A stretch of DNA of 63,169 nt, counting the filler, from Parachlamydiales bacterium (GTDB taxonomy: Bacteria; Chlamydiota; Chlamydiia; Chlamydiales; Parachlamydiaceae), in assembly GCA_020051075.1 (NCBI GenBank). It is 3 parts of 3 records of this genome, joined end to end, with 100 filler letters (N's around TTAATTAATTAA, not from the genome) between each part and the next. Parts side by side here need not be neighbours in the genome. Positions count along the whole stretch, not along the records: positions 1 to 24,385 come from JAGVJP010000051.1; positions 24,486 to 50,961 come from JAGVJP010000090.1; 1 more part is not named here. One strand, written 5' to 3'. The stretch's first letter is position 1. Each line of letters begins with the position of its first letter. Positions 24,001 to 30,000 of this stretch are shown here, one piece after another. The position numbers are program-made.

Positions 24001-27000
24001 TACACCCATTGTCGCAAGCATCGATCAAACCCCGGGTTTTGAATTTGTTTGCCTATTCCGGCGGTTCTACGCTGGCAGCAGCAAAAGCCGGCGCCGCTGT
24101 GTGCCATCTAGACGCTTCCAAAGGCATGGTGGCATGGGCAAGGGAAAACGCTGCATTAAATCATCTCGAAGACGCGCCTATCCGATGGATCGTCGAAGAT
24201 GTCGCCAAATTCATCGCACGCGAACAACGGCGCGGCTCTCGTTATGAGGGGATCATCTTAGATCCGCCCAGCTTCGGACGAGGCGCCAAAGGGGAAATAT
24301 TTAAAATTGAGGAAAGCATTGTCAAACTCCTTGAAGATTGCCGCAGCCTACTCAGCGAGCATCCCTTATTCATCTTATTTTCTTGNNNNNNNNNNNNNNN
24401 NNNNNNNNNNNNNNNNNNNNNNNNNNNNNTTAATTAATTAANNNNNNNNNNNNNNNNNNNNNNNNNNNNNNNNNNNNNNNNNNNNAAAGCTGGATGGGAG
24501 AGTTCTTAATTGCCCACTTTATCTCATGGAAGAGCTCAGGAAATTAATCTCTCGGCTAGTCGATGATTCTTCTACTTAGCGAAGTCTCATGAAGGAGCCA
24601 CTAGTCTGAGCTTTGTTTTGTGATGTTTACAATCCACTCTCTTTGGTCAAAATGCAAATGAATAAAGAGGTAACACGATTACTTAATTCATTGAAATATA
24701 GGTATTTGATGAAAATAAAAAAACAGAGAATTTTGTATTGACAATAAAAAAGTCTGAATGATATCCATGATGTGGAATATGTCTTATTTTCAGAGACTTA
24801 TTTGAGAGATCTGAAAGAAGGCTCGTCGAGTGTATTTTGCGGATGTAACTCTCAAATATTTGATTTTTAAATCAAATTGAGAAGCAATCACCAATTAGAT
24901 TAATGCTTTAAGCAAAGGAAAAAACCATGAGATTACAAAACAATGACAACTTTACAAACAATCAGGTTAGTGAAGTTAATTTTCGAAGGCAAAATGAACC
25001 CTGCCCTAGATGCCTAGCGGTACTTCCGAATAACATAGAAGAATTGATTTGTCAATTTAGAATGCAGGACAAGGGGAGTCATTTGGGATCTCAGATTGGT
25101 TTCCAATTAAAAGAGAAGTCAGATACTGATCTCGGCGAATTGAAATAATATAGAGTTTTACAGAATATACAATTTTTAATATTTATGTGATTAGAAAACT
25201 TCTATATCGATTTCAAGTGTAACCGTTCACAGAGGTTCAGGCCTTCTAAAATGGTGTTTGAATGGATGAAATAGGAAGAAATCGGCAAAATTCATAGTTT
25301 TTTACTATTATTGAGTCGATTGAAGCGGTTTGTCTTTTAACAAACCTTTTAGGATGGTCTAATCCTCGTGAATGGTTACTCTCAAGGCCGAGCTGTTTCA
25401 GGAAGTGGTCCATAAATAGGAAAAAGTTAGTTCGTCTGACCCAACATCACTGTGAAAGGTCAATTATAAGAAATCGGTCTAAATAGAATCATCCTTTCTG
25501 GAATGATGACGATTGAAAGGTTGTTTTTTGAGACCGATAAAGAAAAAGTAAGGGGGAACATTTTGCCAAAAATTAGCATTGTTGGAAGAGGAGTAGATCC
25601 AGCAAAACATCTGAGTCTATCAGCTTTAAGCACACTCAAGGATGCGGATAAAATTGTTGGTATTGAATCAGAAAAAGAGTTCTGGAAGCAATTGCAAAAA
25701 GAATTTGGCGTTGGTGAAATTGAAGATTTAGGAAATCTTTATAGAAGTCAAGACAACGATATGGTCAATTATTGTCGTTTTGTTGATTATGTCCTTCATC
25801 TATCATCTGAAATTACACACCTCGCTCTACTTGTTGCAGGGCATCCTAGGCTTGGCGTCACGTTTATTGAGCTCTTAAAGAAAAATGCTCCAAAAGATAC
25901 CGAGATTGAGATTATAGAGGGTATTTCTAGTTTTGATGTGATGATCAACAATCTTGGGTTAGACCCACTGGAGCAAGGAACCGTTCTATTGGATGCTAAT
26001 CGGTTGTTGTTATTTCACTACAGAATTGAACCTGCATTATCATACTTTATCTATCATGTGTGCTCGATAGGTAACCCACAAACGAATTTCGTCGAGCCTT
26101 CATTAAATAATCGAATTGATCTCTTAAAAAATTATCTTTTAAAATTTTATCTAGAAAACAAAGAGGTTTTTCTTTGTCGTGCCTCAAATGGGAAAAATGA
26201 AGTCTCTAAAATTTTTCGAACCACGATTGTGAAGTTAGATTCTATTGTGAAAGAAATTGATTATAGCACTACTTTATACTTGCCATCCGAAAAACCATCT
26301 CAATTAGATTGGGATTATTTGAACATACTAAAGTGATTTTATGAAACCATCATTTACCATTTTCAGAAACAACTGGATCAATGCAACATTGCTTATCACT
26401 TTTTTGCAACAGATGTTAGTGGCTGGAGGAACTTTTTTTTTAGGCCACCTTGCTAATTTGTATCCAACTGAAGGATTTCAACTAAGCTCGGCTATAATTT
26501 TATTTATCTGTATTCTCCTACCTGGAACTATTATTCACTATTGGGTTGTCTGGTGTACAACTCGAGCTTATAAATCTGCTCAATTGAACTATTTGAATGA
26601 ATACATAGAATCAAATTATAATCATCCAACGCACTGGCGCGATGAAAAATCTAAGCAGCAACGACATGATATGATGTGCAGAGGTGGTCAGGAAACTATC
26701 CAGTCAGCTGTATATTTTTTAGTTGATTTTACTGCTACAGGGTTGAATATTTTGCTAAATACGATTTCTATTATTCTTGTCACAGATTTGACTCTGGGTC
26801 TTATCATCATTGTAGCCGGTCTTTTAGGCTTGTGGATGATTCATCTTTTTGGAACATCGATTGCCGAAAGTAGTCGAAATGAAATTCTTGCAGATAATCA
26901 ACTCAATGCTCACTTAAGTCGAAGTTGGGATAACATTATTTTGGGCAATCAACTTTTCTTTGACCGCTGGAAAAACCATTTTGTACAACTCTTTTCAAAT

Positions 27001-30000
27001 ACAGAAAATGCCTCTCTTCAGAATGTCAGAAAAAGAGATTGGGCCGTTTCTATGGCTGGTATGGTTACAAACGCATTAGTTCTGGGAGGCGCACTGTTTT
27101 TAGCTTGGATGTATAAGGATACTGCTGGTTTTGTTTTGGCTATCTTGGTGATGTTGCCTAGAAGCCTCCAAATAGTCATGCATATTCAGATTATCCAAAA
27201 GTATGTTGCTCAATGGAAAGATCTACAAGAAAAATTAGCGGTCACCTACGATAGCCTTGCGGAACCTCAATACATTGATCTAAGACCACTGATTCAACAA
27301 GATCATGTCCGCGTAAGAGTTGGAAACCAAAATTACTCTCCTCAAGATATTGAAAATTGTTTGGGTAAGAATAGGTCTGGCCGTTTTACTATTACAGGTC
27401 CAAATGGGGTTGGAAAATCAAACCTTTTGCTAGAATTAAAAAATAAATTTAATTTGTCCGCGGCCTATCTTCCCGCACATCATCAATTGATGTTGCAGCA
27501 ATCTCAACTTAGCCTCTCCACTGGCGAAACAGCTCTTGCTGCCTTGAAAGATTTGGGATCAGCAAATTGCGATGTCCTTTTGTTGGACGAGTGGGATGCT
27601 AATTTATCGCCTGAAAATCGAACAATAATAGATAAAGTGATCGATCAACTGAGTCTCAAGCGGATTATCATAGAAGTTCGACATTCTACAGAAAATCCCA
27701 CATCTTCGTCATGTGCGCTGAAGTAGCTCACACAGTCCTTCTTACAACAAAGTGCTCAGCACAATGTAAACATTGTCCGTTTTCGAGCCCTGATTTGGAG
27801 AAGTTATTTCTCGCTCCACAGACCATTCAAGAAATTATGCATCAAACGGCTGCCAAATTAACTGTTCTTTCAGGTGGAGAGCCTTTTGAACATCCGCAGA
27901 TTACGGAGATTCTAACAGAGATGGCTAAACAACCCCATCCCTTTCGAATTGCAACTGGAGGTTTTGTGGATTTGTCTCCTTGGATTGAAAAATTACTAAC
28001 ACTTAGTCTAGCTTCAGGAGCTCTTGATGGGGTATCTATGGGAACCGATGTTCTGAGTTCTCGGGTTGATCATTCTCAATGGGTTCAAATTTGGAAAGAA
28101 AATATTCGATTATTATCTAAATTTCAGATTCCTTATTCTCTCACATTGACTTTAGGAGGCAATTTAGATTTTATTTGGTTAAATTTGTGGAAGTGGACCG
28201 ACTCATTTGATAGCATGCCTGAGTTTATTTACTTAAGGTATTCGAGGGGAGATTTATTAGAAGATTGGATTCATAAGCTCCAAAATACTTTTGGCGAAAT
28301 ACCAATCGTTCCAGACGAATTTTCCTCATAGATGCTTTGTATATGAACGCATTTTTTTTGAGATTTTTACGTGAAATAATGAAAACGATGATTTCACGTA
28401 ACATTTTATTGTTGCAAAAATTTACGTGAAATGTCTAAAATGATAATTTCACGTAAGGAATAAAATATGCAGTCTCAATTGTTTGTTGGAAGAGAACAGG
28501 AGCTAGAAGGATTAGAGGCACTTTTAGCAAAGAAAAGTGCCAGCCTTGTTGTGATCCGTGGGAGGCGGCGGATTGGGAAAAGTCGTCTCGTCGATAAGTT
28601 TGCAGAGGGTAAATCTTATCTTGTTTTGACAGGACTTCCTCCAGAAAAAGGAACAACAGCCCAATCTCAACGCGAGGAGTTTGCGAGGCAGCTGACTGAA
28701 AAGTTGGGATTACCGGGTTTGAAAGCAGATGATTGGGGAGATTTATTCACCATGCTAGCTAAATCAACTCCGAAAGGGCGATTTATCTTGCTTCTAGACG
28801 AGATTACTTGGATGGGTTCAAAAGATCCTGCTTTTCTTGGTAAACTCAAAATTGCTTGGGACCTGTATTTTTCGAAAATGCCCAACTTGATTTTGATTCT
28901 TTGCGGATCTATCTCTTCATGGATTGAGAAAAACATCTTAAGCAGCACCGGTTTTTATGGCCGTATTTCACACAAAATTCATCTTCAAGAACTGAGCTTA
29001 AATGAATGCAATCAGTTATTAGGAAAAATGGGGTTTAAGGGATCTATTCAGGAAAAATTCACCCTCCTATCATTAACGGGAGGTATTCCCTGGTACTTGG
29101 AACAAATTAATCCAAAACTTACTGCACAAGAGAACATTCGACGTTTATGTTTCACACCTAATGGACTTTTGGTTAGTGAATTTGATAGTATTTTTTATGA
29201 TCTCTTCGGAAAACGCTCAGATAACTATCGCAAAATCGTCGAGTTTTTGGCGAATGGGCCGGCAGATCATACCACTATTTCTCAGAATATTCATTATGGG
29301 AGTAGTGGGCAGTTGAGTGAATATCTCGAAGAGCTTGTTCTGGCGGGGTATTTAGGACTAGAACATACGTGGTCTTTAAAGACAGGACGGGAATCTCGTC
29401 ATAGTCGTTATCGAATCCGTGACAACTTTTTGAGATTCTATCTCAAGTATATGGCGCCGAATCTCAATAAAATTAAACGCGATGCTTTTAAAAATAGCTC
29501 CCTTTTCTCAATCTCTTCATGGGAGGGAATAATAGGGTTGCAGTTCGAAAACTTGGTTATCAATAACCGAGAGCTTTTGCTGCGTGAGTTGGGGATTCGG
29601 TTTGAGGAAGTCGTATATGATAATCCTTTCTTTCAGAAGAAAAGTACACAAAGGAAGGGATGTCAAGTCGATTATCTCATTCAAACCCGCTTCGGAAATC
29701 TCTTTGTTTGCGAGGTTAAGTTCTCTAGAAACCCCATTCCCCCTGCGGTTATTCAAGAAATGCAAAATAAACTCAACGTCCTCCACATCGAACGTGGGCA
29801 AGCAATACTTCCTGTGCTCATTCACGTCAATGGAGTCACACCAGAAGTTGAAGAAAGTGGATTTTTTGCACGAATTATCGACTTTGGTAGTCTTATTCAA
29901 GGGACAAGAGATCGATTGAATTAACGTCATAGACATGAATCGATCAATGTGTTAAAATAAAAATTCCGATCTGCATTGGAAGAGATTGTGTTCATTTGTT

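Follow-up and report, generated by a model that had tools for sequence, protein, structure and literature searches.

Layout of the cassette

The window, a stretch of 63,169 nucleotides from the genome of an environmental chlamydia of the Parachlamydiales, raises the question of what a methyltransferase that resembles borosin enzymes, but lacks the arginine held to be essential in them, does beside a small peptide gene. The survey's finding placed a peptide, a methyltransferase, an ABC exporter and a radical SAM enzyme at 24927..28331 (window coordinates), and four open reading frames on one strand confirm this arrangement:

24927..25148, + strand: precursor peptide, 73 aa, an open reading frame with AAGGA upstream
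25005..25058, + strand: conserved precursor stretch, predicted core P27-R-C-L-A-V-L-P34 (25005-25028) followed by the amphipathic helix NNIEELICQF44
25219..25379, no strand assigned: MITE-like dispersed repeat with terminal inverted repeats, between the precursor and methyltransferase genes
25563..26336, + strand: 257-aa SAM methyltransferase (Asp-type clade) with a borosin fold, starting at TTG 25563
26341..27726, + strand: ABC exporter, 461 aa, membrane domain and compact nucleotide-binding domain
27711..28331, + strand: minimal radical SAM enzyme, 206 aa, without SPASM, twitch or RRE extension

The contig starts just 441 bp upstream of the cassette. The TTG at 25563 is preceded by AGGGGG, and homologues of the methyltransferase begin at this position; its residue numbers below follow the 277-aa longest open reading frame (ATG 25503) and not the 257-aa TTG form. 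A scan for promoters and terminators was uninformative: it gave 19 promoter-like sites where 12.6 ± 3.6 were expected, and no terminator.

The repeat separating the peptide gene from the methyltransferase gene is 161 bp long, has 11 other long matches in its own genome (75-86% identity) and forms a long hairpin when folded (-59.5 kcal/mol, without a shuffle control). No match to it was found in the other fetched cassette loci. It is an insertion that lies outside the ancestral cassette. Several chlamydial copies of the cassette are decayed, and the window copy carries this repeat within its operon.

The precursor peptide

The precursor consists of a variable N-terminus, one conserved core with its helix, and a variable tail. 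When its genome is searched with the profile of the family peptides, it is the only significant match, at E 9e-13, and the runner-up stands at 0.36. Much as the survey had it, the chlamydial peptides carry a motif, here PRCL(A/S)xLPxNIEELIxxF; what was missed is that an R-x5-P core spans phyla and defines the family. The R and P are invariant in 50/50 aligned peptides and are the only residues to be so family-wide. The conserved part covers about 18 residues, some whole open reading frames of the family are just 22-27 aa, and 15 of 65 precursors carry two to three copies of the motif.

All six Arg codons and all four Pro codons are used at the invariant sites, and thus the constraint acts on the protein. 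A strict motif pattern, drawn up after the motif had been seen, was present upstream in 50 of 70 loci, compared with 2 of 70 on the reverse complement and 4 of 59 downstream; shuffles give an expectation of 4.6. This places the motif above chance. No Pfam match at E ≤ 0.1 was obtained for any of the 50 peptide stretches, nor an NCBIfam match for any of five precursors. Matches of the window peptide to NMD3 (E 0.09) and S27ae (E 0.14) were rejected because they stem from a CPRC private to this copy.

Fold of the methyltransferase

The methyltransferase matches the Pfam family TP_methylase (E 1.9e-9), and it belongs to the borosin branch of the PF00590 fold. The survey's observation that its PDB matches are all borosin enzymes was reproduced: this holds for 13/13 sequence matches at E ≤ 0.01, the best being MroMA (E 2.4e-11), and for 25 of 27 at E ≤ 1. 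The family profile finds 25 borosin sequences at E 1e-27 to 1e-20, compared with 3e-5 for the next protein. The AlphaFold2 model (pLDDT 91.6) aligned with 32 borosin entries at Z 25.0-27.5 (rmsd 2.2-2.8, 241-256 residues aligned), and the best non-borosin match reached Z 18.3, the ceiling for tetrapyrrole methylases. Among the matches listed by Foldseek for the predicted fold, only borosin methyltransferases appeared. Neighbours in the ESM Atlas were unnamed TP_methylase clusters only, and no relative was present among 14 pattern matches from viral contigs.

The best NCBIfam match is YabN (NF052436; 54.9 bits against a cut-off of 525, profile positions 1-226 of 486). The doubt that the survey drew from this loses its force, since six homologues with the Arg and YGHP of borosins also have YabN as best match, all far below cut-off.

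Active site and predicted complex

The clade carries the motifs D..NY / xGHPR / DANR / YH where borosins have R...Y / YGHP / EAT / WQ. The survey's claim that the essential arginine is replaced by aspartate holds in the alignments: the site is D86, and among 230 proteins that span the active-site positions it is Asp in 213, Arg in 11 and another residue in six. In SonM, R67A leaves only trace activity, R67K is about 100-fold down, and the YGHP tyrosine sets SAM affinity (PMC8429565); YGHP is also the motif behind the BorosinMT rule (10.1101/2021.12.24.474128). Neither YGHP nor the arginine (SonM R67, OphMA R72) is present here. The YGHP tyrosine corresponds to A112 (AGHPR), where Asp-type proteins mostly have P, A or L and 11/11 of the Arg-type have Y, and the lock residue F99 corresponds to G118.

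Other features are retained. Y80, D86, Y90, GHP, D164, N166, R167 and H185 are invariant in 63 aligned methyltransferases. Across the 213 Asp-type proteins, Y80 is kept in 213, N166 in 212, Y90 in 210, D164 in 209, G118 and R167 in 207 each, and H185 in 203; GHP and GISS are likewise kept. By profile alignment, Y80 and Y90 correspond to the tyrosines flanking the arginine in dbOphM and MroMA, and the active-site tyrosine pair of SonM (Y58/Y71) is thus retained.

A predicted complex of precursor and methyltransferase scored 0.77, compared with 0.01 for the best of three controls. Of 157 solved pairs, 116 reach the score mark, as do 2 of 215 mismatched ones, a calibration that is only rough here because the run used its own alignments and a ligand; the score may also reflect likeness to the solved SonM-SonA and OphMA complexes. 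Runs agreed in at least 69% of contacts, with a partner pLDDT of 67. The model places the PRCLAVLP core in the active-site cleft and the helix residues I37, L40, I41 and F44 on the C-terminal tail of the other subunit. The predicted interface takes in D86, G118, D164, N166, R167 and H185; the model names no Arg-Asp pair.

Exporter and radical SAM enzyme

The ABC exporter has Walker A (353), a signature-like LSTGE (392), Walker B (413) and an H-loop (445), without an N-terminal peptidase domain. Its Pfam matches are weak and to the ATPase only, and its best NCBIfam match begins at profile position 149. The same exporter family is found in 26 of 51 loci.

The radical SAM enzyme (PF04055, E 6e-9; AlphaFold2 pLDDT 91.7) has a CxxxCxxC motif that is invariant in 21/21 sequences, with no further conserved Cys. 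The sole PDB sequence matches of its profile are YydG/EpeE (E 2e-8, positions 5-106). The Foldseek list is led by SkfB and EpeE, and SuiB, viperin and PFL-AE tie by Z among radical SAM cores. As the fold matches tie, no candidate function was retained from the fold. TIGR04078 scores 23.8 bits against a cut-off of 300. The epimerase architecture of EpeE, in which C223 is the hydrogen donor, is absent, since the match is confined to positions 5-106 and no Cys is conserved beyond CxxxCxxC. The core Cys of the precursor is present in 20/20 loci with a radical SAM gene versus 7 of 26 without; as these form one clade, the link is not counted as co-evolution.

Distribution and linkage

In the order sample, 12 of 301 genomes match the methyltransferase, the source genome included. 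The other 11 comprise seven full-length Asp-type proteins, one cut by a contig end, two C-terminal fragments and one Arg-type borosin. The family occurs far beyond the Chlamydiae: the Asp-type clade exceeds 200 sequences, and members are present in Bdellovibrionota, Nostoc, Sphingomonas, Aquimarina, Paludibacterium, Rouxiella and Aeromonas. Host association, which the survey had given as a trait, is therefore not supported as a defining one. From the quick tree, whose forks are open, no donor lineage is claimed.

A precursor is observed upstream of the methyltransferase in 56 of 61 loci and an adjacent one is missing in five, although the loci are kin and not independent samples. Genome-wide searches found no precursor in five of five other incomplete or damaged cases, and no orphan precursor was found in 292 of 300 chlamydial genomes. 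In an out-of-sample set of 151 Legionellaceae genomes, the peptide profile matched only two, exactly the two with an Asp-type methyltransferase.

An exporter is present in 49 of 51 loci and a further tailoring enzyme in 48: radical SAM in 21, HExxH in 20, 2OG in 15 and a PRMT-like enzyme, assigned by motifs and not by a curated match, in 10. The HExxH motif is found in 27/27 proteins of its cluster, and their Atlas neighbours are named aKG-HExxH peptide beta-hydroxylase, a family of RiPP enzymes (PMC13060819, PMC12636437). Precursors on other contigs adjoin other tailoring genes. No protease is encoded in the cassette, and an M3 peptidase lies near just two of the 51 loci.

Interpretation

With a small open reading frame bearing a conserved core, modifying enzymes and an exporter, the locus is almost certainly a RiPP cluster, of a new borosin-like variant without a borosin-binding domain (BBD). 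The survey's reading of a RiPP cluster with a borosin-like methyltransferase and a precursor therefore stands, but its label of alpha-N-methyltransferase is putative, the essential Arg being Asp and the YGHP Tyr being Ala.

Backbone N-methylation of the precursor is considered fairly probable. The locus would be a horizontally moving RiPP cassette whose methyltransferase acts as a homodimer, as SonM, OphMA and the model suggest. The short helix is predicted to act as a follower that replaces the five-helix BBD, docking on the C-terminal tail of one subunit, while R-C-L-A-V-L-P is threaded through the SAM cleft of the other. Judging by the fold and the two kept tyrosines, a core backbone amide would be methylated, likeliest at L30, A31 or V32. 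The radical SAM enzyme may then modify the peptide again, with thioether formation at the core Cys the most plausible change and epimerisation the alternative, after which the core would be released by a putative unlinked protease and exported by the ABC transporter. In sister clusters the same R-x5-P scaffold would be modified by other enzymes.

It is possible, though doubtful, that the invariant Arg of the peptide replaces the lost catalytic Arg. As tentative is the fuller proposal of a charge swap, in which the peptide Arg pairs with Asp86 and substitutes for the catalytic Arg of all characterised borosin methyltransferases, so that its own peptide alone switches the enzyme on. The R-x5-P core would then be the common scaffold of a new RiPP class that crosses phyla and owes its diversity to radical SAM, HExxH, 2OG and PRMT-like enzymes, and in the chlamydial and Bdellovibrio branch the minimal 206-aa radical SAM enzyme would cross-link the core Cys.

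It is unlikely that the remodelled site instead places the methyl on the side chain of the invariant Arg, on the thiol of the Cys or on an N-terminus newly exposed by cleavage, with D164-H185 as base and D86 binding the Arg. The coordinated clade-wide changes in the cleft (D86, G118, D164, N166, R167 and H185), all within the predicted interface, and the invariance of the peptide Arg are consistent with such a role. However, both tyrosines that hold the backbone in SonM are retained, the Cys is not conserved across the family, and the PRMT-like enzyme added in 10 of 51 loci would be the natural Arg methylase.

Still less probable is a methyltransferase without catalytic activity that binds the peptide as a scaffold and offers its core to the true tailoring enzymes (radical SAM, HExxH and 2OG). 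The loss of the essential Arg and the other tailoring enzyme in 48 of 51 loci would suit it, but three loci have no other known tailoring gene, and conservation across phyla extends to the glycine loop, GHP, GISS and both tyrosines, seemingly beyond what a scaffold needs. A YabN-like or tetrapyrrole-type small-molecule methylase behind a regulatory leader peptide is very improbable: the YabN match and the trees (the quick tree includes no characterised member, and those of 27 sampled loci have no characterised sequence) favour it, but Arg/YGHP-type proteins match YabN equally, no MazG domain is present, the fold gap to non-borosins is 7-9 Z units, and the repeated cores, precursors beside other tailoring genes on other contigs, RiPP-type neighbours and predicted complex oppose an upstream regulatory frame.

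The family is apparently undescribed. Searches on borosins with Chlamydiae found only unrelated nematode-biocontrol work, and those on the precursor motifs only unrelated 'prcla' matches among the matches listed. By title or abstract, the listed borosin papers since 2024 describe no such clade and the listed HExxH/RiPP/methyltransferase papers no such family. Asp-type proteins may be included in Lee's set of 733 NMTs without a precursor. Borosin precursors have been published as sharing no conserved sequence and the Arg as essential; the Asp-type clade breaks both rules and so allows a direct test of how an amide nitrogen becomes reactive towards methylation. With a recognition tag of about 10 residues replacing the BBD, the system would offer a useful handle for engineering backbone N-methylation. 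For Chlamydiota, automatic cluster counts are all that is known of secondary metabolism (PMC9666466); a concrete RiPP pathway can now be named for them, and for predatory Bdellovibrio, which is culturable and manipulable.

Comparison with known systems

YabN proteins are defined by a MazG pyrophosphatase fusion and a score of at least 525 bits, and the window enzyme scores 54.9. EpeE/YydG and SkfB share with the window radical SAM enzyme the common core with CxxxCxxC, EpeE being the sole PDB sequence match; they differ in that the window enzyme has 206 aa and no auxiliary-cluster domain or RRE.

SonM/SonA, the type IV split borosin of Shewanella oneidensis (PDB: 7LTC, PMC8429565), likewise pairs a stand-alone methyltransferase of about 260 aa with an adjoining separate precursor gene, and the folds agree (Z 26.5, rmsd 2.5, 250 aligned), as do both active-site tyrosines. 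The sequences are only about 20% identical: mapped by motif spacing, Asp takes the place of R67, Ala that of Y93 and Gly that of F99, with Asp/His at E146/Q167. The window cassette also has the exporter and the radical SAM enzyme. The five-helix borosin-binding domain of type IV precursors is absent, and a fixed core motif followed by a short helix is found instead. The survey had counted this absence as a doubt, which weakens because BBD-less borosins are a published class (PMC11395268).

The BBD-less class 4 borosins of Legionellales are likewise split, with short conserved precursor motifs as recognition sequences (10.1101/2024.01.09.574750, PMC11395268). The common Legionellaceae methyltransferases (six full-length matches, three genomes) reach 223-258 bits with the Arg/YGHP-type profile and no more than 152 with the Asp-type one, and the R-x5-P precursor profile is unmatched in 30 genomes that carry them.

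The fused fungal enzymes OphMA, dbOphMA and MroMA have a clasp and core that are not fused here, and the active-site replacements are as for SonM. They nonetheless provide the best matches in sequence (MroMA, E 2.4e-11) and structure (Z 27.5), and the cross-subunit docking predicted for the window peptide resembles their domain-swapped catalysis.

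The cassette in the window

Four open reading frames, all on the same strand, were confirmed within the coordinates that the survey had assigned to the cluster (window numbering):

24927–25148, + strand, ORF of the 73-aa precursor peptide
25503–26336, + strand, methyltransferase, longest ORF 277 aa; likely start TTG 25563
26341–27726, + strand, ORF of the ABC exporter
27711–28331, + strand, ORF of the radical SAM protein, 206 aa

The TTG start is favored by an upstream AGGGGG and by homologues that begin at the same point; residues are nonetheless numbered by the 277-aa ORF for the methyltransferase and by the 73-aa ORF for the peptide. 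All four frames are intact with the family residues present, and the G+C content of the cassette is 37.1% vs 43.1% for the genome. A MITE-like repeat of 161 bp with terminal inverted repeats (25219–25379) separates the precursor from the methyltransferase and may influence expression of the cassette; 11 other long matches (75–86% identity) occur genome-wide.

The left side of the cassette is visible only to the contig start at 24486. A PF10672 SAM methyltransferase gene (23700–24486) is truncated by the N-linker joining two contigs, and its position next to the cassette counts as an artefact of assembly unless otherwise demonstrated. To the right, two palindromic operator-like sites of the TTACGTGAAAT-N13-ATTTCACGTAA type, 55 bp apart (28366–28456), lie immediately 5' of a PF01637 ATPase gene (28467–29924).

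A borosin fold with a rewired active site

The methyltransferase matches TP_methylase in Pfam. The survey had raised the doubt that its best NCBIfam match is YabN; the match is real (54.9 bits, with the cut-off at 525), but the label does not discriminate since six homologues with the Arg and YGHP motif of known borosins also have YabN as their top match (59–101 bits). The borosin identity of the PDB sequence matches held, with 25 of 27 at E ≤ 1 being borosin methyltransferases. A family profile recovered 25 borosin sequences at E-values of 1e-27 to 1e-20, the next protein following at 3e-5. The AlphaFold model (pLDDT 91.6) aligned with 32 borosin entries at Z 25.0–27.5 (rmsd 2.2–2.8, 241–256 residues aligned), while the best tetrapyrrole methylase reached Z 18.3, and a borosin methyltransferase occupied every Foldseek row shown. 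As modeled, the enzyme possesses a borosin fold.

The Asp that the survey had found aligned with the catalytic borosin Arg (D86) is a family trait. Of 258 homologues gathered, 230 cover the key sites, and at this position 213 have Asp, 11 Arg and six another residue, a ratio that reflects closeness to the query since the search was seeded with the window enzyme. The 213 Asp-type proteins share Y80 (213), Y90 (210), G118 (207), D164 (209), N166 (212), R167 (207) and H185 (203), with R116 in 165; all 11 Arg-type proteins combine a Tyr of the YGHP type with Gln at 185. A quick IQ-TREE analysis of 88 rows, midpoint-rooted and built without any characterized sequence, split off a group of 73, almost entirely Asp-type, from the other 15 (SH-aLRT 99). 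The split is not absolute, because three of those 15 also carry Asp. As read from these alignments, the active site is rewired.

The precursor family and its specificity

Scans identified 38 genomic and 43 metagenomic family loci, which come from Chlamydiota, Bdellovibrionota, Nostoc, Myxococcota, Serratia, Rouxiella, Aeromonas, Paludibacterium, Acinetobacter, Sphingomonas, Aquimarina and Legionella; the sample includes near-identical kin and is not independent. After de-duplication, 50 of 70 loci had an upstream match to a strict precursor pattern, chosen post hoc with the motif already seen, vs controls of 2/70, 4/59 and 4.6. With a position-specific matrix, an R-x5-P peptide was found in 56 of the 61 loci that combine a strong methyltransferase match with 500 nt or more of upstream sequence. 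Among the remaining five, one has its precursor on a separate contig and another has, one gene further upstream, a variant longer by one residue. By its sequences, the family is wide and precursor-defined.

Only the Arg and Pro are invariant among 50 aligned peptides, and both are encoded by all synonymous codons. The unit is repeated two to three times in 15 of 65 precursors (shortest unit 15 aa) and some entire precursor ORFs have just 22–27 aa; given these repeats and short frames, the putative core must sit in the conserved stretch. Silvanigrellaceae-type precursors of ~100 aa (upstream ORFs of loci L028, L068 and L070) have a second, degenerate core-like copy ~35 residues ahead of the main copy. 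Many cores (e.g. loci L013, L016, L017 and L034) start with HPRL or PHPRC, resembling the C-terminal PHPRL of apidaecin, a ribosome-binding peptide; this is likely a chance match.

In the chlamydial order sample, the peptide profile matched eight of 300 genomes, once each and each time at a full-length Asp-type methyltransferase; these eight peptides had themselves helped to train the profile, and the evidence lies in the other 292 genomes, none of which gave an orphan match. The Legionellaceae served as an out-of-sample test. A borosin-like methyltransferase is present in 32 of 150 genomes, and only two are Asp-type by score (289 and 322 bits; the remainder ≤152). The peptide profile matched two of 151 genomes, exactly these two. 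Both peptides have the sequence HPRLLSAVP(I/L)DMLELI and are encoded on contigs other than that of the methyltransferase, adjoining a PRMT-like or 2OG gene. Six full-length enzymes from three other Legionellaceae genomes scored 223–258 bits on the Arg-type profile. Counting against specificity, five of five additional genomes whose loci are cut, damaged or divergent yielded no precursor in a genome-wide search.

Distribution within the chlamydial order is patchy, and in some genomes the cassette is decaying: G221 and G293 retain pieces of the methyltransferase, and G261 retains the ABC gene plus a partial radical SAM gene, with neither methyltransferase nor peptide in the 6.3 kb retrieved. Canonical borosins are also present in the order, because chlamydial genome G006 has an Arg/YGHP-type methyltransferase within an 846-aa open frame (L060:4768–7308). 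A 699-aa fusion of an MFS transporter and an Asp-type methyltransferase occurs at L085:1478–3574, where an adjacent precursor was not found.

Neighboring enzymes and exporters

Among the 51 loci with sufficient downstream DNA, 49 have an exporter (window-type ABC family 26, MFS 19, ABC_membrane_3 4) and 48 encode another tailoring enzyme, namely radical SAM (21), HExxH (20), 2OG-Fe(II) (15), PRMT-like (10; recognized by the authors from motifs, without a curated match) or Asp/Asn hydroxylase (4). The HExxH motif is present in 27 of 27 proteins of its cluster, whose Atlas neighbors are named aKG-HExxH peptide beta-hydroxylase (0.94–0.96); one TIGR04267 match fell below threshold. Enzymes of the aKG-HExxH type are described as hydroxylating RiPP precursors in PMC13060819 and PMC12636437. 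The genes around the methyltransferase encode RiPP-type enzymes.

The radical SAM loci all fall in a single clade (support 100) rich in Bdellovibrionota, with the chlamydial clade (support 100) nested within it; since forks inside the larger clade are open, no donor lineage is claimed. Where a radical SAM gene and a precursor occur together, a Cys follows the Arg in 20 of 20 loci, vs 7 of 26 without radical SAM, an association that is a single evolutionary event.

Several loci differ in arrangement. In the Bdellovibrio-type loci L021, L022 and L024 (~5800–8750), the whole cassette lies just 3' of rplK-rplA-rplJ-rplL, and in L022 and L024 directly 5' of rpoB, these genes being recognized from translations. 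L089 and L092 are large versions: alongside ABC, HExxH and PRMT-like genes they hold an M3 peptidase and three proteins without annotation, and they are the best place to seek a protease step. L119 (G285:C7, ~51600–53100) holds a minimal radical SAM homologue (34% identity) beside a second radical SAM-like frame, with no methyltransferase, ABC or precursor match within 7 kb.

In the window, the radical SAM protein (model pLDDT 91.7) is a bare core: CxxxCxxC is invariant in 21 of 21 sequences and no other Cys is conserved. Its profile matches only YydG/EpeE sequences, across the first half. Foldseek ranked SkfB first, then EpeE and viperins, and Z-scores of 14–15.5 left SuiB, viperin, NifB and PFL-AE tied. 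A thioether from the core Cys would be a guess at its reaction. In the exporter, one very compact domain contains Walker A, Walker B, the H-loop and a signature-like motif; the protein has no peptidase domain, and there is no protease among the cassette genes.

The predicted complex and the likely reaction

A model combining two copies each of the methyltransferase, SAM and a 34-aa peptide (residues 18–51 of the ORF) scored 0.77 against 0.01 for the best of three controls. In calibration, 116 of 157 solved complexes attained the mark, as did 2 of 215 mismatched pairs, but the calibration is rough because own alignments and ligand were used; the model may also have passed through its likeness to SonM-SonA and OphMA complexes of known structure. 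Runs agreed in at least 69% of contacts, with a partner pLDDT of 67. Peptide residues 25–35 are predicted to contact Y80, D86, Y90, G118, D164, N166, R167 and H185, with P34 packed against R167 and L170 and L30 against G118 and D164, while I37, L40, I41 and F44 of a helix would dock onto residues 264–277 of the other subunit.

Taken together, the cassette very probably directs synthesis of a RiPP, and backbone N-methylation is the favored activity of the methyltransferase, held with some reserve. A RiPP with some other methyl chemistry is rather unlikely. That the enzyme is a dead scaffold is improbable. A cassette that makes no RiPP at all is scarcely credible. According to PMC8429565, SonM R67A retains trace activity and R67K loses activity ~100-fold; the main effect of Y93F is a higher Km for SAM, and deprotonation is termed an elusive step. 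Returning to N-methylation, a substrate-assisted charge swap, pairing peptide Arg28 with Asp86, is a tentative idea; this pair is absent among the named pairs of the predicted complex.

Comparison with known systems

No description of the Asp-type clade or the R-x5-P precursor was found among the papers that the literature searches listed; Cho et al. 2022 and supplementary datasets may include some of the enzymes. According to Lee et al. (10.1101/2024.01.09.574750), borosin precursors are without conserved sequence elements, 733 N-methyltransferases have no assigned precursor, and Legionellales clusters lack a borosin-binding domain (BBD) with methyltransferases close to other borosin enzymes. 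Class 4 borosins are likewise BBD-less in Xu et al. (PMC11395268), and for Chlamydiae the available portion of PMC9666466 gives automatic RiPP-like counts only. The detection rule given by Imani et al. (10.1101/2021.12.24.474128) is the YGHP and DCLFAD motifs.

Unlike borosins, the window methyltransferase has neither the essential Arg nor the YGHP motif, both of which were looked for. Because these are lacking and methylation is predicted, the system is not classed among the borosins. SonM-SonA, as described in PMC11285071 and PMC11751858, is a heterotetramer that methylates hydrophobic residues. Compared with such a split borosin, the window system appears alike in its working, with a follower helix replacing the BBD.
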